A DNA stretch of 64,000 nucleotides from Patescibacteria group bacterium (GTDB taxonomy: Bacteria > Patescibacteriota > Microgenomatia > UBA12405): contig JAHIPV010000020.1 of the NCBI GenBank assembly GCA_018902845.1, positions 74,810 through 138,809 of the forward strand, given 5' to 3'. A program made the position numbers and the translations under genes. Positions 2,407-60,131 of this stretch are shown here, piece after piece (the stretch's first letter is position 1; every line of letters starts with the position of its first letter). Under the pieces are notes generated by a model. The model worked only from the letters and a program-made list of their open reading frames with translations, had not been told where the DNA came from and did no database searches.

Positions 2407-3348
2407 TTAGGTTTGGCGGGGGGTGAAGGAGAGGGTTTTTTTGAGTAGGCCGATGATGAAATATATTCCGTAGTAGATATGAGTTGTGGGAATTGTTATT
2501 GTTCCGAGAATGGAAGCCAGAAGACCGTTTTTTTTGAGGAAACTAAGAAAGGTTAGGAATAATAGTAAGAGATAAGAAATTAGGGGTATCGCGTCAAACG
2601 CGACTGTGGAAAAAGGAAGGGAAAGTAAATAAACCAGAAAAAGACTGGGGAGGAAATAGCCCAGTCGAAGTGATGTTTGGGGAAATTTTTTGGCAAAGAA
2701 ACCGCGGTGGAGGGCGTATCTTTTGATTTGAGCCAGATGAGAATTAAAAATTTCTCGACGATGATGATAAACAACAATATTTGGATGATAGAGAATTTTT
2801 TTATTTAGTTTTTTGGTTAAATTTAGGCACAAAACCGTATCTTCTCCTGGCCAATGGTGGGTATCAAAGCCTTTTACTTTGTTGAAATCAGATTTTTTGA
2901 CTATTAAATTGACGGTTGGATAATCGTCGACGAATCTTTGTTTTTGGATACTGTTTCTATAACGGCCGGCCGCTCCACTGCCAAGCCATGACGACCAGAC
3001 TAATCCTGAAGCAATTTGCTTAATATTGTTATTGGGTGGAGTGAGACAGGGACCGCAAACAGCAGAGAGATTGGTGTTGGTGTTGAAAACCTTTAAAGCA
3101 TTTTTGAGCCAGTTTTTGTCAGGATAAGAATCGTCGTCAAGGAAAGCCAGGTATTTGCCTTTGGCCATTTTGGCTCCTAAATTTCTTTTTTGGGCCGGAT
3201 TGGCAGTCTTAGAAATTTTGTCTGTGATTACCAGAATTTCGAAATTTTTGAAGGTTTGATTTTTGAGATGAGATAAGGTTTGGGTCAGAAATTTATTTTT
3301 TTTGCGGATAGGAATGATGATGGAGAAGGAAAAATTGTGATTTTTCAA
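2407..3348 (-). CDS. Glycosyltransferase family 2 with a C-terminal membrane anchor
   Basis: IIIPIRKKN..LAFLDDDS..YHH GT2 motifs including the DxD-like DDD. There are C-terminal hydrophobic helices. Confidence 0.75.
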   Translation of the reverse strand: MKNHNFSFSIIIPIRKKNKFLTQTLSHLKNQTFKNFEILVITDKISKTANPAQKRNLGAKMAKGKYLAFLDDDSYPDKNWLKNALKVFNTNTNLSAVCGPCLTPPNNNIKQIASGLVWSSWLGSGAAGRYRNSIQKQRFVDDYPTVNLIVKKSDFNKVKGFDTHHWPGEDTVLCLNLTKKLNKKILYHPNIVVYHHRREIFNSHLAQIKRYALHRGFFAKKFPQTSLRLGYFLPSLFLVYLLSLPFSTVAFDAIPLISYLLLLFLTFLSFLKKNGLLASILGTITIPTTHIYYGIYFIIGLLKKTLSFTPRQT

Positions 3349-3444
3349 ATTTTTAATTTCTAATTTTTAATTTCTAAATTAATTTTGCCATCACGAGTCC
3401 TTCGGTGGCACTCAGGACAAGCTTCGCGTGGCAATGACAGATAA

Positions 3445-4245
3445 TTATTGTCCGGTGTTGATGCGGAGTTGGAGATCGGGGTTGAATTTCCATTTTCTCT
3501 TGTTGGAATCGTTATAGTATCTAAGAATACGCAAACGATAAAAAATTGCCAAAGTGTCGATAAATGTTTTGTAAATTGTTTTTAGCATTGAATTATGCAG
3601 ATGTAAATTATCAAAATCATAATTTAGTTTGATTGGTGCTTCATATATACGTTTAAAACCTAAATGTTTTGAAACGGCTAAAATTTCGAGATCAAAGGCG
3701 AAGCTTTTTACTAAAAGCCTTGGCAAAACTTTTTCCAATACTTTTCTTTTAAAAATTTTTACTCCTGCCTGCGTATCACGGATTTTGAGATTAAAGAGTG
3801 TGCGAGAAATGAGATAAACAAAGAAGCTGATGATTTTTCGATCAATTGGGTAATTAACAAGGGAAGCGGGGTGGCGTTTTGATCCGACTATAATATCGGC
3901 GTCATACCATTCTAAGTGTTCCAGAAGCATAGAAATGCCGTTGGGATCGATTTCCATGCCTGCATCTATGAAGGCGATGTAATCCCCTTTTGTTTTTGTC
4001 ATACCAAAACGAATAGCGTGGCCTTTGCCGTGATTGTGTTTGTAAGTGTAAATTTTTAGATTTTTGCGTTTAATTTGTTGGCAGATTTTGTATGAGTTAT
4101 CTTCGTTTTTGCCGTCCACTATGGCAATGATTTCGTATGGATAACGAATTTTTTGTAAAGTATTGTCAATGTTTAAAATATCTTTTTTGATGGTTTTTTC
4201 TTGCTTGTAGATAGGGATGATGATTGAGAGGAAATGGGTATTCAT
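3445..4245 (-). CDS. Glycosyltransferase family 2
   Basis: LSIIIPIYKQEKTI..IAIVDGKNEDNS..DADI GT2 signature. The start is placed at the internal Met (ATG 4243..4245). The upstream 22 codons of the tracked ORF are the repeat element 4266..4324. Confidence 0.7.
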   Translation of the reverse strand: MNTHFLSIIIPIYKQEKTIKKDILNIDNTLQKIRYPYEIIAIVDGKNEDNSYKICQQIKRKNLKIYTYKHNHGKGHAIRFGMTKTKGDYIAFIDAGMEIDPNGISMLLEHLEWYDADIIVGSKRHPASLVNYPIDRKIISFFVYLISRTLFNLKIRDTQAGVKIFKRKVLEKVLPRLLVKSFAFDLEILAVSKHLGFKRIYEAPIKLNYDFDNLHLHNSMLKTIYKTFIDTLAIFYRLRILRYYNDSNKRKWKFNPDLQLRINTGQ

Positions 4246-8104: not shown

Positions 8105-9913
8105 TTATTTTGGGAGGTTATGAGATCCCTCCACTTCGGTCGGGATGACAGAAGTTTGGTAGGCATAGAAGGTGGAAATATTATTAATTGGAGATAATTG
8201 TATTAATTTAGAAAAATCAGTTGATTTATCTATACCAAGGCGAATTATTTCTTGGTGTGAATAAATTACCAAAGTATTTTGTTGGCTTTTGATGAATTGG
8301 AAATCTGGTGCATGAAAGATAATGTTGTCGAGTTTTTCAATTTTACCTGTATCCCCTACTTGGTTTTTTGTCAAAAATGCTTGTTGTTGATATTTAAGAG
8401 GTGGATATTTTGAATAAAAAAGATAGTAGATGTATGGTTGGTTGTAGAAATCGGTAAAATATATATTGTCATATTTATTTTGATTTTTGATTAAATATTG
8501 AATTGATTCTTCGTAGCCGTATAAAAAGTCTTGAGGTGATTTTTTGGTCATATGGTTTAGGTATAGATCTGAATAGTAAAAAAAAGAGAAAAAATAGACA
8601 GTAATGAGCAAAAAGTAAAAAGTAAAGAAAATTGATTTATGACCGTGCCTACCGGCAGGCAGGTTTATGAAATATGATTTATGAATAAAACTTAAAAAAG
8701 AATTGAGGCCAAGAGAAATAAAGAAAACTATGGGGATGGAGAGGGACATGGTGCGGGTGGCTTGGATGGAATCACGGGTAAGAGAAGCGGGAATGGGGGC
8801 GATGAGAAGCCAGAATAGGAAGAAGATGGAAAGCGTTGAAAACGAAAGTGAATGAAAAATTCCAATGAGAAGAAAAATTATACTGGGGTAAAGAATAACA
8901 CCGATATAAGGAGCTGAGTGGCGGGGATTTTGCCAATCGCCTTGGAAAATAAGAAATTTAGGCGAAAAGTGATTAAAATAGCGGTTTAAAAAATTTCGTA
9001 GAAAAAAGATTGGTTGATTGTAAAAAATTTGATAGTCCAGTTTATTGCCTTCGGAGATAATTGTTTCAGTTTCTTGTTGGCTTCTGGGATAAGAAAAAAG
9101 ACTTAAGACTTTTAGACGATTAGTGTCAGATGAAAATAAGAGGCCATAAATAATGGGAAGGGAAAGAAGAAAGAGAGGAAGAATGAAGTGTTTTAAAAAT
9201 TTATTTTTGTTTTTTTGTATTTTCCCCCTGCGGGTGACTGCGTTGACATTTGTTTTTAAATTAATTGAAAACAAAATAAATATCAAAAACAGACTGATCA
9301 TTTTGGCTGACTGATAGGTGTATAGAGAAAGTGAAAAGGCAAGAGACGAGAGTAAAAAATAATTGTTTTTTTTAATGTTCCCCCTGCGGGTGACTGCGTT
9401 TTCGCTTGTGATGGCTTTGAAAAAAAAATAGGAAGCCAGAATTAATTGGAATGTAAGAATATTGGTTTCCCAGGCTCCCCTACTGTAGTGAATGTTGTAT
9501 GGATTGAAGGCTAATATCAGAGCTGATATTAGAGCTAAGTTGCGTGTTTTCTTGTTTTTGGGATTAATTTGGGTGATGAGCAAATACAAAAACAAAGGTG
9601 TTAATGAGCCTAAAATAATTGATGGCAGACGGACTGAAAGCGGATTAAGGCCGAATATGGCCACAAATGGAACAGTAAGATAGATATAAAAACCTGGTTT
9701 GTAGTCTCCAAAAGATTTAAAAATTAATGGCAAGAATTCACCATATTCGTCTTTGCCGGTTTTGAGAATTGAATAAGCGTTATAGCCGATAGCAGTTTCG
9801 TCCCAAAGTAAGGGTGGATACGAATTTGTTTTGTAAATTCTTATAAAAAAAGCTGTGAGGGTGATTAAAAGAAGGATTATTTTGGTTTTTTTATTCATAG
9901 GCAATGATTTCAA
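8105..9913 (-). CDS. GT39/ArnT-like GT-C membrane glycosyltransferase paralog
   Basis: WDETAIGYNAYSILKTGKDEYGEFLPLIFKSFGDYKPGFY..SVRLPSIILG. Two copies of the CCCCCTGCGGGTGACTGCG repeat are read as NAVTRRG (9234..9267, 9379..9410). The C-terminus EVEGSH comes from the repeat at 8117..8150. Confidence 0.7.
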   Translation of the reverse strand: MKSLPMNKKTKIILLLITLTAFFIRIYKTNSYPPLLWDETAIGYNAYSILKTGKDEYGEFLPLIFKSFGDYKPGFYIYLTVPFVAIFGLNPLSVRLPSIILGSLTPLFLYLLITQINPKNKKTRNLALISALILAFNPYNIHYSRGAWETNILTFQLILASYFFFKAITSENAVTRRGNIKKNNYFLLSSLAFSLSLYTYQSAKMISLFLIFILFSINLKTNVNAVTRRGKIQKNKNKFLKHFILPLFLLSLPIIYGLLFSSDTNRLKVLSLFSYPRSQQETETIISEGNKLDYQIFYNQPIFFLRNFLNRYFNHFSPKFLIFQGDWQNPRHSAPYIGVILYPSIIFLLIGIFHSLSFSTLSIFFLFWLLIAPIPASLTRDSIQATRTMSLSIPIVFFISLGLNSFLSFIHKSYFINLPAGRHGHKSIFFTFYFLLITVYFFSFFYYSDLYLNHMTKKSPQDFLYGYEESIQYLIKNQNKYDNIYFTDFYNQPYIYYLFYSKYPPLKYQQQAFLTKNQVGDTGKIEKLDNIIFHAPDFQFIKSQQNTLVIYSHQEIIRLGIDKSTDFSKLIQLSPINNISTFYAYQTSVIPTEVEGSHNLPK

Positions 9914-23585: not shown

Positions 23586-24626
23586 TTATTTCCAGCGGCC
23601 TTTGTTAAAGCGCTGAAGATAAAAGTCGATGATACCGCGTTTTTCCCAAGAATATTTGGAACTAAATAATTTTTCTACTGATTGGCGAATAATGGCCAGT
23701 TTGACTCGAAATGAAGCATGGCGCATGGCAAAAAGAAGTCGGTTTCTGGAGATAAAATAGTGATGCAAGTTTCCGCCCGTACCCGATGATTGAGCGTTTA
23801 AATGCCAAATTTTTGAATCAGGAATATAAGCAAGTTTATATCCTGCCTTTTTGGCCTTTTGGCAAAAGTCAATATCTTCCAGATACATGAAATATTTTTT
23901 ATCAAACAAGCCAATTTCTTTGAATAATTTTGATTTGACAAGCATACAACATCCGGAAATAAAGTCTATTTTAGTAGTGAATTTATTGAATTGACCTTTG
24001 TCAATTTGATCGACTCCAATGTTTGAGCCCAAGATATTGTCCCAATCCATGTAACCGCCGGCAGACCAGATGATATTACCCAGCTCATTTTTTTTGTATC
24101 TATTTTTGTGAAATTCGTAACCTTTGGCAAAATAGATTTTGGGTCCCAATATAGCCAGTTTGGGATTTTTTTGGGCGGATTTTAATAAAATTTGAAGAAA
24201 ATCAGGATCAACCAAAACGTCATTGTTGATTACTAGAATATAGTCAAAGTTTTCTTTTAAGGCTTGTTTGATGCCAAAATTGTTGCCGTTGGCATAACCC
24301 AAGTTTGAAGAGGTTTGGAGAATTTGGATTTTTACGTCATTCTGAGGCGAAGCCGAAGAATCCCGTTGTTGTTTTTGCCGATTTCGAGGGGATCCTTCTT
24401 CGCCGGTCGGCGAATCAGGATGACGGTGGGAAGGATCAGGATGGCGGTGTGTGAATTTATTAAATAATTCGATTGAATTATCGGTGGAGGCGTTGTCAAC
24501 CAAAAAGATTTTGTAGTTAAAAGAAGTATGCTTAATTTTAAGAAGAGATTTAATAGTTTGGATGGTGAGCGCGGGCTGATTCCAGTTAAGAACGATGATG
24601 GCAATTTTAGTTTTATTTTTTGTCAT
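23586..24626 (-). CDS. Glycosyltransferase family 2 with an in-frame repeat insertion
   Basis: IAIIVLNWNQPALT..LVDNASTDNS..VINNDV motifs. The start ATG at 24624..24626 is the terminus of the composite leader element. The insert at 24335..24450 encodes HRHPDPSHRHPDSPTGEEGSPRNRQKQQRDSSASPQND. Confidence 0.75.
   Translation of the reverse strand: MTKNKTKIAIIVLNWNQPALTIQTIKSLLKIKHTSFNYKIFLVDNASTDNSIELFNKFTHRHPDPSHRHPDSPTGEEGSPRNRQKQQRDSSASPQNDVKIQILQTSSNLGYANGNNFGIKQALKENFDYILVINNDVLVDPDFLQILLKSAQKNPKLAILGPKIYFAKGYEFHKNRYKKNELGNIIWSAGGYMDWDNILGSNIGVDQIDKGQFNKFTTKIDFISGCCMLVKSKLFKEIGLFDKKYFMYLEDIDFCQKAKKAGYKLAYIPDSKIWHLNAQSSGTGGNLHHYFISRNRLLFAMRHASFRVKLAIIRQSVEKLFSSKYSWEKRGIIDFYLQRFNKGRWK
24335..24450. 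repeat. Long family-B variant in-frame in a GT2 gene (paralog of the 17415..17505 insert)
   Basis: The same ~60-nt 5' half as 17415..17505, followed by ggggatccttcttcgccggtcggcgaatcaggatgacggtgggaaggatcaggatggcg. Confidence 0.9.
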
Positions 24627-24728
24627 TTCGACCAAAGTGGAGAAATCTCTGAATTTATTTCAGAAATCCGCTTTTGGCGGATATCTCAGACAAGCCGAGA
24701 GATCCCTCGACTTCGCTCGGGATGACAA
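24621..24728. repeat. Composite ~108-nt 5' leader element; its 'tgtcat' terminus supplies the GT2 start codon
   Basis: tgtcatttcgaccaaagtggagaaatctctgaatttatttcagaaatccgcttttggcggatatctcagacaagccgagagatccctcgacttcgctcgggatgacaa. Confidence 0.9.
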
Positions 24729-33905: not shown

Positions 33906-33963
33906 TGGCGAGACACCTCACATTCGTGAGAGATTCCTCCGCTTCGGTCGGAATGACAAATTG

Positions 33964-55230: not shown

Positions 55231-57393
55231 TTATAATCTGATTTGGTCGGCGATGGATTGCATAGATAGAAAACAGACTTCGATGAATTTGTCGATGGGA
55301 ATATTTAGACCATCTTTTTTTTCACACAGCATTACTTCTTCTCTTCTGGTGCCGGCGGCAAAACGTGGTTCCTTTTTGAAGCGTTTAGTAATAGATGAGA
55401 GTTTGACATCAGCTAGTTTTTTGGAAGGATATACGAGAGCTACGGCAACAATTAAACCCGTTAGAGAATCAGCGCAAAGAATGGCCCACTTGGCTTTTGA
55501 GTCGTATTTTATTTTTTCTCTACCATCATGAGCCAGAACTATTTGATGAACAAGGTCAGAAATTTCCAGATTGTGTTTGGCTAAAATTTGTTTGGTATTA
55601 GCCGGGTGTTGGTCTTTTAACTCTCCTGAATAATCAATATCGTGAACCAGTCCGGCCAAAAGCCAATCTTCTTTGCTTGGTTCGTTGTCGTCAATATGAT
55701 TGTTTTCTTTTAGATAGTCGTAAATTCCACCCATACAGGCTTCGAGGGTCAAAGAGTGAAAAAAGATATTTGTTTCCAGTTCGCTTTTTACTGCGTTTAG
55801 GTATTTTTGACGATTGGGATAGTTTTTCTTAGTTGACTTAGTCATAGTAACTTTAGTTTGTGTTTTAGGTTTAGTCGTTCTTGATTTTTTTTTCTGTTTG
55901 ATCTTTGGTTTCATTAGTGGGAAGGCGATAATTTCTCGAATAGATTTGGAATCTGTAAATAGTTTTATTAATCTGTCGATTCCAATGGCGATACCACAAG
56001 TGGGCGGAAAACCCTGTTCAATGGCTTCTAGATAATCATAATCTATTTGGTGTGCTTCTTCGAATCCAGCTTCTTCTCTTTTCTTCTCTTCAATAAATCT
56101 TTTTTTTAAGTCAACTGCATCGGTTAATTCAGAGTAATTGTTTCCTAATTCTGAACCAAAAGCAAACATTTCAAATCTTTGCGTAAATCGAGGATCTTTG
56201 CATTTTTTTGCCAAAGGAGAAATTTCAACGGGGTAATCATAAATTATAATCGGTTGTATTAATTTTTCTTCTACTAATTCTTCAAAGGTAAAATTTATAA
56301 TTTCACCGATAGATGTCATGGCCGAAAGTTCTTTGTGTTTAGTTTCATTTAGTTTTATATTCTGCAATGAATTTCTTGCATCTTTTACTGTTTTCCATGT
56401 TAGGGGATCGATTTTTGTGTATTTTTGTATTGCCTCCACTAATCTCAACTTCTCCCATGGACGTTTAAAACTGAACTTTTTTCCTTGATATTTTAATTCA
56501 GTGGTGCCAAGAACTTTTATGGCGGCATGTTCGATGATTTTTTCAATAAGATCCATACCGTATTTGTAATCTTTAAACGCTATCATTGCCTCAAACATGG
56601 TGAATTCGGGATTATGTTGTTGATCTATGCCTTCATTTCTAAATACTTTTGTAATCTCATAAACTTTTTCAAAACCCCCAACAATAAGTCTTTTTAAATA
56701 CATTTCATCAGAAATTCGTAAATAAAACTGAGAATTTAGAGCGTTATGATGGGTAGTAAAAGGTCTAGCAAAAGCACCTCCATAAATTGGTTGCAAAACT
56801 GGAGTTTCTACCTCAATAAATCCTTTTTTTTCTAAAAAATTTCTGATAGAACTGACAACATTGCTTCTAATTCTTAAGGAATTTCTAACTTTTGAATCAA
56901 GTAAAATATCTAAATATCTTTTTCGAAAACGTTCTTCGGTGTCTTTTAGGCCGTGCCATTTGTCAGGTAAGGGACGAAGTGCTTTTGTCAGAAGTTGAAA
57001 ATCTTTTATATCAATAGTAATTTCTCCAGCCGAAGTTTTGATCACTTTTCCTTCAACACCAATAAAGTCTCCTCTGTCTATTAATTTAAGTATTTTAAAT
57101 TTATCCTTACCTAAGTTTTTTTCCTGAAAAAAAAGTTGGATTTTACCTGTTTCGTCTTGAATATCAGCAAAAAGAATTCGACCATGGCCACGTAAACTCA
57201 TTAATCTGCCGGCGGTTTTGACTTGCTTGTTTAAATTTTGGCAACAGTACGAGACGCTGTGTTTTTTGTCGTAAGAATTAGGGTAAGGATCAATGCCTAG
57301 TTCTTTAAGTTTTTTTATTTTTTCTAAACGGAGGTTACGGATTTGACGCAGTTTTGTCTGGTTCATTATCTTAATTTTACACGATTGAGGCAA
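55231..57393 (-). CDS. lysS: Class II lysyl-tRNA synthetase fused to a C-terminal ~220-aa HD-type domain
   Basis: LysRS motifs (FRNEG, GGAFARPF, GIAIGIDRL, ending FPLMKPK at ~aa 500), then a K-rich linker and a domain with H..HD..H..H..D spacing (FFHSL, LVHDIDY, LVHQIV, LAHDG, CADSL). Confidence 0.8.
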   Translation of the reverse strand: MPQSCKIKIMNQTKLRQIRNLRLEKIKKLKELGIDPYPNSYDKKHSVSYCCQNLNKQVKTAGRLMSLRGHGRILFADIQDETGKIQLFFQEKNLGKDKFKILKLIDRGDFIGVEGKVIKTSAGEITIDIKDFQLLTKALRPLPDKWHGLKDTEERFRKRYLDILLDSKVRNSLRIRSNVVSSIRNFLEKKGFIEVETPVLQPIYGGAFARPFTTHHNALNSQFYLRISDEMYLKRLIVGGFEKVYEITKVFRNEGIDQQHNPEFTMFEAMIAFKDYKYGMDLIEKIIEHAAIKVLGTTELKYQGKKFSFKRPWEKLRLVEAIQKYTKIDPLTWKTVKDARNSLQNIKLNETKHKELSAMTSIGEIINFTFEELVEEKLIQPIIIYDYPVEISPLAKKCKDPRFTQRFEMFAFGSELGNNYSELTDAVDLKKRFIEEKKREEAGFEEAHQIDYDYLEAIEQGFPPTCGIAIGIDRLIKLFTDSKSIREIIAFPLMKPKIKQKKKSRTTKPKTQTKVTMTKSTKKNYPNRQKYLNAVKSELETNIFFHSLTLEACMGGIYDYLKENNHIDDNEPSKEDWLLAGLVHDIDYSGELKDQHPANTKQILAKHNLEISDLVHQIVLAHDGREKIKYDSKAKWAILCADSLTGLIVAVALVYPSKKLADVKLSSITKRFKKEPRFAAGTRREEVMLCEKKDGLNIPIDKFIEVCFLSMQSIADQIRL

Positions 57394-57844
57394 TAGAAAC
57401 GATTTTGTAAGTTAATTTGCCAATTGGAGCTTCAAAGTCTATGCTTTCGTTGACTTTTTTACCTAACAAAGCTTCCCCCAATGGGGATTGATCCGAAATC
57501 ATTTGTCGAGCCGGATCAGCTTCGTATTTGCTGACGATAAAAAATTCTTTTTCGGCTTTGTCCTGCAATTTGATTCTGACTTTGGTACCAATTTCAACTT
57601 GGTTTGTATTAATGTTTCCGCTTATTATTTTGGCGATGGCCAAAACTTCTTCAAGTTTTTCTAGCTTGGAGCTAATTAATGCCAATTCCTCTTTTAACTG
57701 AACAGCCAAACCATCTTCTCCGGACTCATCCGGCTGAGCTACTTCCTCTATTCGAGAAACTAAAAGATCTTTTTTGGATTTTAATTCCTGTAACTCCTGG
57801 CTTAGTTTTTCGAAGCCCTTTTGTGTTAGTAATATTTGGTTCAT
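57377..57844 (-). CDS. greA: Transcription elongation factor GreA
   Basis: N-terminal coiled coil and a C-terminal FKBP-like domain at 155 aa. It overlaps lysS by 17 nt. Confidence 0.8.
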   Translation of the reverse strand: MNQILLTQKGFEKLSQELQELKSKKDLLVSRIEEVAQPDESGEDGLAVQLKEELALISSKLEKLEEVLAIAKIISGNINTNQVEIGTKVRIKLQDKAEKEFFIVSKYEADPARQMISDQSPLGEALLGKKVNESIDFEAPIGKLTYKIVSIASIV

Positions 57845-58029
57845 CTTTATTTAAAAAATTAAAACCTCTCCTTTTTTAAACTTAGACGGTTGTTTTTTTT
57901 GACAACCCTCTTAAGCTTTAATAGAGAGGCGAATAGTGTTGACGCAAAACAAAATCCCAAAATTGGGTGTGTAGAGTTTTTTCTCTTTGTTGTTGCTTTT
58001 TAGCGTCATGGTAGTGATGTTAGAATAGA

Positions 58030-58803
58030 ATGAACATTTTGTCAATGCTTTTTAAATTTAAAATAATGGAAATATTGGAATTTTTTAGAGTTACACCACA
58101 TAAGCGAAAAGTTAAAATCAAGGGGAAATCAGGTGTGATTTTTAGTAACCCATCTGGTGTAAAAAGACATATTTTTTACGTATCAAACTTGTTGTTGGTT
58201 TTTCTGTTGTTTTACGCTTTTTATTTATATGGACCTCTGGTTAGAGTTATTTTTAAATATCATTTCGATAAAACGAACCTGAATTTGCAACCCAAGCCAA
58301 CAGTTAAGCCAATAACAAGTGTAGAGTTGCAACCTACAATCAGAGAGATAAAAAAAATTGAAAGTTTTAAGATAAGAATAGATAAAATTGGAGCCGTGGC
58401 TGATGTAAAGGTTGGTGTTTCCCCTTTTGATGAGAAAAAATTTAAAGAAGTTTTGAGTGAAGGATGGATTGTTCATGCCAAGGGAAGTGCTTTGCCTGGA
58501 AGCGGTAAAGGTAAAATGTCATATATTTTTGCTCATTCTACCGAACTGGGAGCAGGGTCGGTACGAAAAAATTCAACTTTTTATTTGCTTGGTGAAATGG
58601 AAGATGACGATGAGATTATTGTGGATATTGACGGGAAGGAATATGTTTATAGGGTTTATGATAAAAAAGTAGTGGAAGGAGGAGAAACTGAATATCTTAG
58701 TTACAGTGATGCAAGTAGAGATGTTTTGATACTTCAGACCTGCTGGCCGATTGGAACCAATTGGAAGAGACTGCTGGTGTTTGGAGAACTGGTAAATTTT
58801 TAA
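58030..58803 (+). CDS. Sortase-family transpeptidase-like protein
   Basis: N-terminal TM, a conserved His (YIFAHST) and a C-terminal LILQTCWP that matches the sortase TLxTC active-site motif. Confidence 0.45.
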   Translation: MNILSMLFKFKIMEILEFFRVTPHKRKVKIKGKSGVIFSNPSGVKRHIFYVSNLLLVFLLFYAFYLYGPLVRVIFKYHFDKTNLNLQPKPTVKPITSVELQPTIREIKKIESFKIRIDKIGAVADVKVGVSPFDEKKFKEVLSEGWIVHAKGSALPGSGKGKMSYIFAHSTELGAGSVRKNSTFYLLGEMEDDDEIIVDIDGKEYVYRVYDKKVVEGGETEYLSYSDASRDVLILQTCWPIGTNWKRLLVFGELVNF

Positions 58804-58850
58804 TTTCTAATTTTTAATTTTTAAATAAATTCAAAACTTTTTTATTTTAT

Positions 58851-58920
58851 TCGTCATTCTGAGTGTAGCGAAGAATCCCAAGGGGATCCTTCGTCCGACT
58901 GATCGGACTCAGGATGACGG
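58851..58920. repeat. Tandem pair of family-B modules between the sortase-like gene and tyrS
   Basis: tcgtcattctgagtgtagcgaagaatcccaaggggatccttcgtccgactgatcggactcaggatgacgg. Confidence 0.85.
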
Positions 58921-58932
58921 TGTGTGTGCCGT

Positions 58933-58970
58933 TCCCCCTGCGGGCGACCGCAAGGGTCGCCCCTACAATT
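58933..58970. repeat. Hybrid family-C/family-A repeat in the tyrS leader
   Basis: ccccctgcgggcgaccgcaagggtcgcccctacaatt. Confidence 0.85.
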
Positions 58971-58997
58971 GTTTTTCTAATAAGCTATAATCCGGTT

Positions 58998-60131
58998 ATG
59001 ACTGTTGATGAAAGATTGAAATTAATTACCAGAAATTGTCAGGAGGTGTTGGTTGAGAAGGAGTTGAAGGAATTGCTGGGAAATGGGACAGAGTTGAAGC
59101 ACTATATCGGTTTTGAAATTTCGGGAATGGTGCATTTGGGGACTGGGTTGATTTCGATGGGTAAAATTGCTGATTTTGTAAAAGCCGGAGTTAAATGTCA
59201 AATTTTTTTGGCTGATTTTCATTCTTATTTAAATAATAAATTAGGCGGAAATTGGGAAAATATTCGCTGGGCAACAGAAAATTATTTTAAAGAGGGACTG
59301 ATTGCTTCTTTAAAATGTTTTGGGGTTGATGAAAGCCAAATTGAATTTATTACCGGAAAAGAATTGTACACAGATAATATTGTCCACTGGGAAACTTTTA
59401 TGGAAGTGGGTAAGCATGTGACTTTGTCACGAAATTTAAGATCAATTTCGATTATGGGAAAAATGCAGGGCAAGGATGTTGATATGGCCACTCTTTTTTA
59501 TCCCCCGCTTCAGGTAGCTGACATTTTTACTATGGGGGTTAATTTAGCTCATGCCGGAACGGACCAAAGAAAAGCTCATGTGATAGCTCGACAAGTGGCA
59601 AAGAAATTGATAATTAATCCGCTTAAAAATGCCAAAGGTAAAGTAATAGCACCGATTGCTATCCACCAAAATTTGATTGCTGGATTAAGCGGACCGACTA
59701 CAGGCGAGAATAGTGAAGAAAGTTTAAAAATGAGTAAGTCAAAACCAGGTAGTGCTATTTTTGTACACGATACTGCTGATGAAATCAGAGAAAAAGTCAA
59801 AAAAGCTTATGGGCCACCAAAAGAGATTGAGTTTAATCCGTTGATTAATTGGATGGAAAATTTGGTTTTTTGGGGAGAAGGTGAAAGTAAGGACGGACTT
59901 AAGGTGAAAAGGGCTGAAAGATTTGGAGGGGATGTAAGTTATTATAAAATTGCTGATTTGATAGATGATTATAAAAGTGAAAAATTACATCCGATGGATT
60001 TAAAGAGTGCATTAAGCGAGTGGTTGGTTGAAAAACTAGAACCGGCCAGAAAGCATTTTGAAAGTGAAAAGGCTAAAAAAGGGTTGGAAAAGATGAGAAA
60101 GTTGATGCTGTCATCACAAGGAACGAAGTGA
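58998..60131 (+). CDS. tyrS: Tyrosyl-tRNA synthetase, archaeal/eukaryotic type
   Basis: HYIGFEISGMVHLG (HIGH-like), KMSKS, and a C-terminal RAERFGGD..LHPMDLK..LEPARK collinear with the archaeal-type TyrRS. The start is placed at the internal Met because the upstream 28 codons are repeat 58933..58970. Confidence 0.8.
   Translation: MTVDERLKLITRNCQEVLVEKELKELLGNGTELKHYIGFEISGMVHLGTGLISMGKIADFVKAGVKCQIFLADFHSYLNNKLGGNWENIRWATENYFKEGLIASLKCFGVDESQIEFITGKELYTDNIVHWETFMEVGKHVTLSRNLRSISIMGKMQGKDVDMATLFYPPLQVADIFTMGVNLAHAGTDQRKAHVIARQVAKKLIINPLKNAKGKVIAPIAIHQNLIAGLSGPTTGENSEESLKMSKSKPGSAIFVHDTADEIREKVKKAYGPPKEIEFNPLINWMENLVFWGEGESKDGLKVKRAERFGGDVSYYKIADLIDDYKSEKLHPMDLKSALSEWLVEKLEPARKHFESEKAKKGLEKMRKLMLSSQGTK

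Follow-up and report, generated by a model that had tools for sequence, protein, structure and literature searches.

A lysyl-tRNA synthetase gene fused to an HD-superfamily phosphohydrolase domain in a Patescibacteria bacterium, with a possible role in Ap4A turnover

The gene considered here is lysS, encoding lysyl-tRNA synthetase (LysRS), in a 64,000-nucleotide (nt) stretch of DNA from a Patescibacteria group bacterium (GenBank assembly GCA_018902845.1, contig JAHIPV010000020.1, positions 74,810 to 138,809; the whole stretch is referred to as the window), where it runs on in frame into a second domain of the HD superfamily. The two modules occupy a single unbroken open reading frame (ORF) at 55231..57393 on the minus strand, which the ORF listing of the window counts as 720 amino acids (aa) from its first TTG. 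The start codon is likely the ATG at 57366, since this lies 10 nt past the stop of greA, a spacing equal to that in the closest relative (contig L001), and it gives a product of 711 aa. Residue numbers follow the 720-aa numbering unless the 711-aa form is stated. The features of the locus are as follows.

55231..57366, minus strand: complete lysS::HD fused gene, 711 aa, with stop codon TAA at 55231-55233; supported by the ORF and by an identical product in four assemblies.
56989..57222, minus strand: LysRS anticodon-binding OB fold, residues 58-135 (PF01336, 60.2 bits).
55912..56940, minus strand: LysRS class II catalytic core, residues 152-494 (PF00152, 282.5 bits; full-length lysS models also score above their cut-offs).
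55825..55902, minus strand: Lys/Thr-rich linker of 26 codons, residues 498-523, defined from the junction sequences and the alignment with the relative.
55885..55893, minus strand: A9 homopolymer within the linker (T9 on the plus strand), on the length of which the fused frame depends.
55843..55845, minus strand: in-frame ATG, M517, where translation of a separate HD protein of 204 aa might begin internally.
55234..55824, minus strand: phosphohydrolase domain of the HD superfamily (HDIG-like), residues 524-720, sharing 88% identity with the stand-alone protein P0001.
55756-55758 (H546), 55639-55644 (H584-D585), 55606-55608 (H596), 55528-55530 (H622) and 55468-55470 (D642), minus strand: putative metal ligands, from conserved alignment columns.
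57377..57844, minus strand: greA, the upstream cluster member, from the ORF listing and the neighbourhoods of relatives.
53620..54891, minus strand: serS, the downstream cluster member, from the same two sources.

This is a genuine two-module gene, comprising a complete class II LysRS, a flexible linker and an HD (HDIG-like) domain with six ligand residues, and both the architecture and the authenticity of the fusion are near certain. On the synthetase side, full-length curated lysine--tRNA ligase models span residues 18-497 above their cut-offs (PRK00484 at 611.6 bits against a cut-off of 468, model positions 3-488; TIGR00499 at 542.6 bits against 427.6, model positions 4-495), and PF01336 and PF00152 are both found. 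The synthetase ends at ...FPLMKPK (K497), and the 223 residues that lie beyond it divide into a Lys- and Thr-rich linker of 26 aa, IKQKKKSRTTKPKTQTKVTMTKSTKK, and a domain of 197 aa. A first-pass annotation, made from the DNA letters alone, had described an extension of some 220 aa that passes through a lysine-rich linker into a domain with the pattern H..HD..H..H..D, and each of these elements is borne out, the last by H546, H584-D585, H596, H622 and D642, at all of which the family alignment is invariant or nearly so.

For the HD domain, AlphaFold2 supplied with a 32-sequence alignment predicts an all-helical structure of ten helices (mean pLDDT 95.0, pTM 0.90), and this model, together with H546, H584-D585 and D642, plus H596 and H622, presents the fold and the ligands of the HD superfamily. 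Across more than 50 diverse sequences, in fused and free forms alike, the H, HD, H and H positions are invariant and the last position is acidic (D or E), a level of conservation which indicates a metal site that probably works; six residues so arranged are typical of two-metal HD enzymes. Matches to existing profiles are less uniform. In the Pfam HD check proposed with the original annotation (PF01966, cut-off 22 bits), the window domain itself comes just under the threshold at 20.3 bits (E = 7e-4), and many of its homologues pass: end-to-end homologues score above the cut-off (P0159 at 32.7, P0166 at 33.4, P0194 at 37.1 and P0184 at 35.8 bits) and many stand-alone members carry a precomputed PF01966 match. 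With the HDIG model TIGR00277, matches at E <= 0.1 came from 13 of the 31 family members scanned (the strongest at 1.1e-9), the window sequence being unmatched, and in the NCBIfam scan of the same 31 members a few gave weak matches to RNase Y and to an HD model linked to a tRNA methyltransferase. When the HD domain was searched against the PDB by phmmer and by an HD-only family profile, no match was significant. The C-terminal part carries a strongly conserved, family-specific basic motif, K-R-F-x-K-E-P-K-F-A-A-G-T-R-R. A concern raised at the outset, that the extension might be repeat-derived or of low complexity, holds for the 26-aa linker only; such an origin was rejected for the extension because the domain is globular (pLDDT 95), conserved and, from a ratio of nonsynonymous to synonymous divergence (dN/dS) of 0.102, apparently under purifying selection.

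The nearest relatives of the domain are free-standing proteins. Its closest stand-alone orthologue, P0001 (KKE45_01765; 198 aa), is 88% identical over the whole domain, and the 120 best homologues in the HD-domain search are all stand-alone, at 192-212 aa. A profile built from the fused type retrieves more than 6800 proteins, of which the best 120 are stand-alone 'HDIG domain-containing proteins' of 183-203 aa.

Less successful was the suggestion that the domain is of the YqeK type. YqeK (COG1713), the symmetrical Ap4A/Ap4N hydrolase of Firmicutes, is like the window domain in its length of ~190 aa, its all-helical fold and its H..HD..H..H..D pattern, and a YqeK alignment shows the ligands in the same order (H21, H50-D51, H83, H109 and D127, all invariant). 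This pattern is nevertheless not specific to YqeK, being common to other two-metal HD enzymes, and the spacing differs, with 11 residues between the HD doublet and the next His in the window domain against ~32 in YqeK. The YqeK model TIGR00488 has no match in the window at E <= 10 or in the 31 members at E <= 0.1, one member matching the nadD/yqeK model PRK07152 at 0.073. Alignment by hhalign against five YqeK sequences from the PDB covers only 51 N-terminal columns, as far as the HD doublet (probability 93%), and the basic motif of the window family sits in the C-terminal part left unaligned to YqeK; no YqeK structure appears among the 50 best Foldseek PDB matches listed. YqeK genes are, moreover, typically linked to nadD and not to lysS. 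Membership of YqeK was rejected on the absent model match and the partial profile alignment, and the domain is best regarded, from its sequence, as a member of the HD/HDIG superfamily outside the YqeK family.

A serious objection is that a one-base error in the A9 run joined two genes. The fused frame does hinge on that run: with a simulated A8, lysS stops at a TGA overlapping the ATG of M517, and with a simulated A10 it stops at a TAA aligned with the relative's stop codon, so that either length would leave two normal-looking genes, and the closest relative is indeed unfused. However, an exact-protein look-up placed the 711-aa product on 12 contigs, and GCA_018895715.1, JGI 3300013391, Logan SRR27456247 and Logan SRR6516043 carry the same A9 with 0/2136 nt mismatches, these four short-read assemblies being independent of one another and derived from different samples and runs. 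Elsewhere in the window, furthermore, the ORFs are long and intact throughout, and no gene is split. On these two grounds an assembly error is rejected as extremely improbable and the fused ORF can be taken as real at the DNA level. A pattern search of metagenome-contig DNA for the junction with a variable A-run gave no matches, though the exact-protein look-up had matched contigs. The fused and unfused alleles are ~90% identical, and their contigs come from consecutive JGI series (Ga0180014 and Ga0180007), possibly from the same study.

A reading frame that is real at the DNA level may still have more than one product, and slippage at A9, or a start at M517, could yield separate products beside the fused protein. 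No Shine-Dalgarno motif lies upstream of M517, an absence that is uninformative on internal initiation since this genome makes little use of such motifs: among 34 window gene starts sampled, 5 have a Shine-Dalgarno-like motif, probably by chance, leaders are A/T-rich, and several neighbouring genes overlap or abut.

Comparison with the closest relative (contigs L001-L003) suggests how the fusion arose. Its LysRS is 92% and its HD protein 89% identical to the corresponding parts of the window (tblastn), and its gene order, tyrS/trpS-type synthetase-sortase-greA-lysS-HD, is that of the window, with lysS (495 aa) and the HD gene (198 aa) standing separate, 3 nt apart, on L001. Where the relative's junction reads ...KPKNKIVKKK, stop codon, acc, ATG GAC TAT CCC, the window is a straight read-through; its LysRS tail is 19 codons longer than the relative's and Lys-rich, and the TAA-ACC-ATG-GA stop/start is not in frame. 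Two alignments of the junction are possible in this low-complexity stretch, one invoking a 12-nt deletion of stop and start and the other a frame change plus an insertion. In this lineage the lysS stop and the start of the next gene have dropped from the reading frame, and the window holds a gene fusion caught almost in the act. Neighbour joining of the HD domains makes the window's domain the sister of the unfused P0001, far inside a stand-alone clade of Microgenomates type, a nested position that marks the fusion as very recent and as independent of other LysRS-HD fusions. Between the window and L001 the synonymous divergence (dS) is ~0.62-0.66, and the dN/dS values of 0.073 (LysRS) and 0.102 (HD) show strong purifying selection on both halves. 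The window protein terminates in ...QIRL (residues 719-720, 55234-55239), the family terminus being ...IGL, with Gly in more than 90% of sequences; the Gly-to-Arg substitution at the penultimate position of the fused copy is thus a non-conservative change at a conserved site.

Fusion of these two modules recurs elsewhere. From a whole-protein search of 1.84 billion cluster representatives, the best 150 matches were scanned with the HD-family profile, and 26 of these LysRS representatives carry the HD family. The great majority (22) have the order LysRS-HD, and many align end to end with the window protein, in one stretch and at 34-41% identity (examples being P0158, P0159, P0161, P0167, P0213, P0215 and P0280). 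Single cases have the architectures LysRS-tRNA_bind-B3_4-HD (P0184), LysRS-B3_4-HD (P0238) and LysRS-HAD-HD (P0304), or the reversed order HD-LysRS (P0208, in the interior of its contig). The fused forms span many clusters less than 50% identical to one another, and the HD gene has been fused to LysRS many times. Other fusions of the candidate phyla radiation (CPR) share the modules, order and metal-ligand pattern of the window protein, whereas their HD halves are ~30% identical to the window's and lie outside its stand-alone clade, which makes the window fusion an independent and much younger event. On one JGI contig (L005) the fused copy is cut by the contig end and Ham1-like and serS genes follow. 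The contig L004 (ENA ERZ25039495 contig_101358) has greA in two pieces and lysS in three, probably through assembly frameshifts, and because of these broken genes the 'fused' LysRS-HD call for P0137 does not count as independent evidence.

Where the HD gene stands alone, it often keeps the same company. Neighbourhoods of the stand-alone subfamily were compared at 80 species-level loci, none of which holds a fused copy. At 9 loci lysS is the immediate upstream neighbour, its LysRS match ending <=80 nt away, and at 17 others it is found on the same strand 400-1010 nt upstream, giving 26 of 80; clustering of the neighbours finds serS downstream at 34 loci and lysS upstream at 25, with greA present at 17 and leuS as the directly preceding gene at 14. 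No conserved third gene was found where the lysS-HD gap is 400-1000 nt, such gaps holding either a LysRS C-terminal extension (tRNA_bind, DUF2000) or unrelated genes (Peptidase_S51, Nudix, DUF5674, NTP_transf_6). The order greA-lysS-HD-serS is a conserved cluster in Patescibacteria in which the lysS stop often overlaps the HD start, by 8 nt and 4 nt in L093 and L095, and in relatives the two genes are co-transcribed and translationally coupled. The stand-alone protein P0001 has the same conserved residues and the same greA-lysS-HD-serS setting as the window, but is made as a polypeptide of its own from an ATG 3 nt past the lysS stop, whereas in the window the 26-aa linker joins both. The HD module belongs, in short, to a large family of small HDIG proteins whose gene in Patescibacteria is typically found between aminoacyl-tRNA synthetase (aaRS) genes, very often directly behind lysS. 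The proposal that lysS orthologues of relatives be checked for the fusion was accordingly rewarded, the same HD family being either fused (the 26 of 150 representatives above) or the next gene.

HD is one of several domains attached to LysRS in these organisms. C-terminal add-ons in relatives comprise tRNA_bind (Trbp111/EMAP-like), DUF2000, B3_4 (the PheRS-beta editing fold), HAD, tRNA_bind with DUF2000, and LPG_synthase_C, and N-terminal add-ons comprise B3_4 and a TauD-like dioxygenase; the bearers include the proteins P0156, P0157, P0164, P0187, P0204, P0184, P0238, P0304 and P0269 and the loci L007, L010, L015, L017, L019, L025, L029 and L058. The two LysRSs nearest to that of the window (59% identity) bear DUF2000 and B3_4, not HD. 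Such add-ons suggest that a synthetase which as a rule lacks an editing domain has been given quality-control modules acting in cis.

Turning to function, the recurrent lysS-HD pairing points to a shared job, possibly the clearing of LysRS-made diadenosine tetraphosphate (Ap4A). The main producers of this dinucleotide are aaRSs, notably LysRS, and YqeK is an HD enzyme that cleaves it symmetrically (PMC13627108, PMC7705103). On that basis it is possible, and we put it forward tentatively as the best guess, that the substrate of the HD module is a nucleotide that LysRS produces, with Ap4A/Ap4N the most plausible candidate. Attack of ATP on lysyl-AMP at LysRS would give Ap4A or a related Ap4N; the HD module, if an active phosphohydrolase, would cleave it; and 1:1 expression, whether covalent or translationally coupled, would keep the by-product or alarmone low at its source. 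Besides the known origin of Ap4A and the precedent of an HD-type hydrolase, this proposal draws on the occurrence of fusions in several independent architectures and on occasional neighbours or inserts with a nucleotide-housekeeping character, namely Nudix (L017 and L078), Ham1-like (L005) and HAD (P0304). In L017 (~3590-4005) and L078 (~3300-4005), both from Shapirobacteria, the Nudix gene (PF00293, E ~1e-16) lies between lysS and HD; Nudix enzymes include asymmetrical Ap4A hydrolases, and a Nudix gene in this position may bear on the nucleotide hypothesis. A broader version, speculative and rather doubtful, would make the HD family the Ap4A/Np4N hydrolase of the CPR, standing beside ApaH, YqeK and Nudix and coupled to LysRS, with A9 slippage, by transcriptional slippage or slipped-strand mutation, perhaps switching between fused and separate forms and so tuning the coupling of alarmone synthesis to degradation.

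Several observations weigh against Ap4A hydrolysis. Firstly, the domain falls outside YqeK, and its best Foldseek matches in the PDB are HD proteins matched weakly (E >= 0.19, TM 0.35-0.47), among them SE1688 and PH0347 (2qgs and 2cqz listed), YfbR, the Ddi2 cyanamide hydratase, YpgQ, a dGTPase and the HD domain of the GlyRS beta subunit. Secondly, lysS is missing from the 4 kb around about two-thirds of the stand-alone loci, serS is as often the neighbour of the HD gene (34 of 80) and leuS sometimes directly precedes it (14 of 80), and a homologue in Caldisericaceae, outside the CPR, is unlinked to lysS; synteny alone could therefore explain the repeated fusions. A functional link to LysRS is favoured by the conserved operon and the repeated fusions, yet both are just as compatible with another substrate or with mere synteny. 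Thirdly, the add-ons tRNA_bind, B3_4 and DUF2000 are tRNA-directed, which points to tRNA over Ap4A.

The alternative that survives best, although we consider it somewhat doubtful, is that fusion is neutral and driven by synteny, the HD protein being a general housekeeping nucleotide phosphohydrolase, not specially related to LysRS, whose gene is joined to an abutting one by small indels, the products being tolerated since a flexible linker would leave each part free to work by itself. All of the linkage data just given (the lysS-free loci, the serS and leuS neighbours and the unlinked Caldisericaceae homologue) favour such an account, as does the overwhelmingly stand-alone nature of the family, in which the 120 best matches of both searches are all of 183-212 aa. 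The window's own event is very young and one slip from reversal, and overlaps of 4-8 nt in relatives would ease joining. What neutral fusion accommodates less readily is the existence of both orders (HD-LysRS in P0208) and of intervening domains (P0184, P0238 and P0304), from which it follows that not all fusions are simple read-through of a junction, and the persistence of fused forms over many clusters less than 50% identical to one another. No fusion partner of HD other than LysRS was seen in the 120 best matches per search, no systematic search for one having been made, and this too counts against a purely neutral process.

A tRNA-directed phosphoesterase is a further candidate, and an unlikely one. 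The module would act on the 2',3'-cyclic phosphate or 3'-phosphate of tRNA(Lys), or hydrolyse non-cognate aminoacyl-adenylates, in quality control or repair. Removal of such phosphates from the acceptor end is an activity of the HD domain of class II CCA-adding enzymes. GlyRS beta provides a precedent for an HD domain that contacts the tRNA acceptor arm (PMC8464048). In the bacteria concerned, LysRSs carry tRNA-binding and deacylating folds, which share one chain with HD in P0184 and P0238, and at L015 a LysRS-tRNA_bind-DUF2000 protein is followed by the HD gene; the HDIG matches (13 of 31 members), the few weak matches to RNase Y and the tRNA-methyltransferase-linked HD model, and the position of the gene among the aaRS genes lysS, serS and leuS are likewise in keeping with a tRNA substrate. 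The family nevertheless resembles neither RNase Y nor the HD domain of CCA-adding enzymes in any specific way, a 3'-end repair activity would not be confined to tRNA(Lys), and no HD enzyme is known to hydrolyse aminoacyl esters.

That the fold is non-catalytic, serving as an extra tRNA-binding or regulatory domain, is very improbable. GlyRS beta is the model for such a role, for it too has an HD fold inside an aaRS, and its chains (7eiv_C, 8ie2 and 7yse) are among the best structural matches to the window domain in Foldseek; however, it has lost the catalytic His-Asp, the HD doublet being replaced by Ser-Lys, and presumably binds the acceptor arm of tRNA or acts allosterically (PMC8464048), whereas the catalytic set of the window domain is intact and its family keeps H, HD, H, H and D/E in more than 50 sequences.

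Amongst bifunctional synthetases a precedent for an add-on that uses a product of LysRS is LysX, in which a class II LysRS is combined with an MprF lysyl-phosphatidylglycerol synthase domain. The partner there is a membrane transferase that uses Lys-tRNA, and both its chemistry and the taxa that carry it are unlike those of the window protein. A LysX-type assignment (NF002821) was tried and rejected, only the LysRS part matching, at 486.4 bits against a cut-off of 742 and over model positions 614-1101, and a Pfam scan found no LPG_synthase_C domain in the window protein; a LysRS-LPG_synthase_C protein does occur among the homologues (P0192).

In the literature no description was found of a LysRS-HD fusion or of this HD family. 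LysRS-HD proteins are already public under generic names, two in NCBI being called only 'lysine--tRNA ligase' (PLX22187.1 from Parcubacteria and MFH0820405.1 from Peregrinibacteria). Precedents exist for add-on domains of aaRSs, for an HD fold in an aaRS (GlyRS beta), for a LysRS with two functions (LysX) and for Ap4A hydrolysis by an HD-type enzyme (YqeK), and since each of these parts is known LysRS-HD does not constitute a new category; the wider coupling of lysS and HD across the CPR, on the other hand, is apparently undescribed. Should the HD module degrade Ap4A/Ap4N, it would be a candidate turnover enzyme for a very large uncultivated group of bacteria, and the fusion would be a natural synthetase-hydrolase pair in which the debate over 'signal or by-product' becomes testable in one polypeptide. 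Should it act on tRNA instead, it would join B3_4, DUF2000 and tRNA_bind as evidence that LysRSs of the CPR collect quality-control domains.

The fused gene forms part of an aaRS-rich block at 53620-60131, which contains, besides greA, lysS::HD and serS, a tRNA-synt_1b gene of TyrRS/TrpRS type (58914-60131, plus strand) and a sortase gene (58030-58803, plus strand). Beyond serS lie a DUF4349 gene (52784-53620, minus strand) and then secA, and this neighbourhood is conserved (loci L093, L095 and L001-L005). The spacer of 340 nt between the fused gene and serS is GC-richer, and in neither the spacer nor the whole 64 kb was a tRNA gene, or any Rfam family above its gathering score, detected. The spacer may differ in length among assemblies, as serS is called at 5476 on L086 and at 5561 on L087; alternatively the start call differs. 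Within it, beside a short hairpin, ATCCCGCTGTAGCGGGAT, is one copy of a 29-nt motif, TGTCATTCCGACCGAAGTGGAGGAATCTC, that occurs four times in the window with <=3 mismatches, where chance would predict none, and that looks like a dispersed intergenic repeat or a miniature mobile element. The copies are as follows.

55159-55187, minus strand: 29-nt motif, the copy within the spacer.
8122-8150, minus strand: 29-nt motif.
24621-24649, plus strand: 29-nt motif.
33930-33958, minus strand: 29-nt motif.

Nearly all genes of the window (1-64000) lie on the minus strand.

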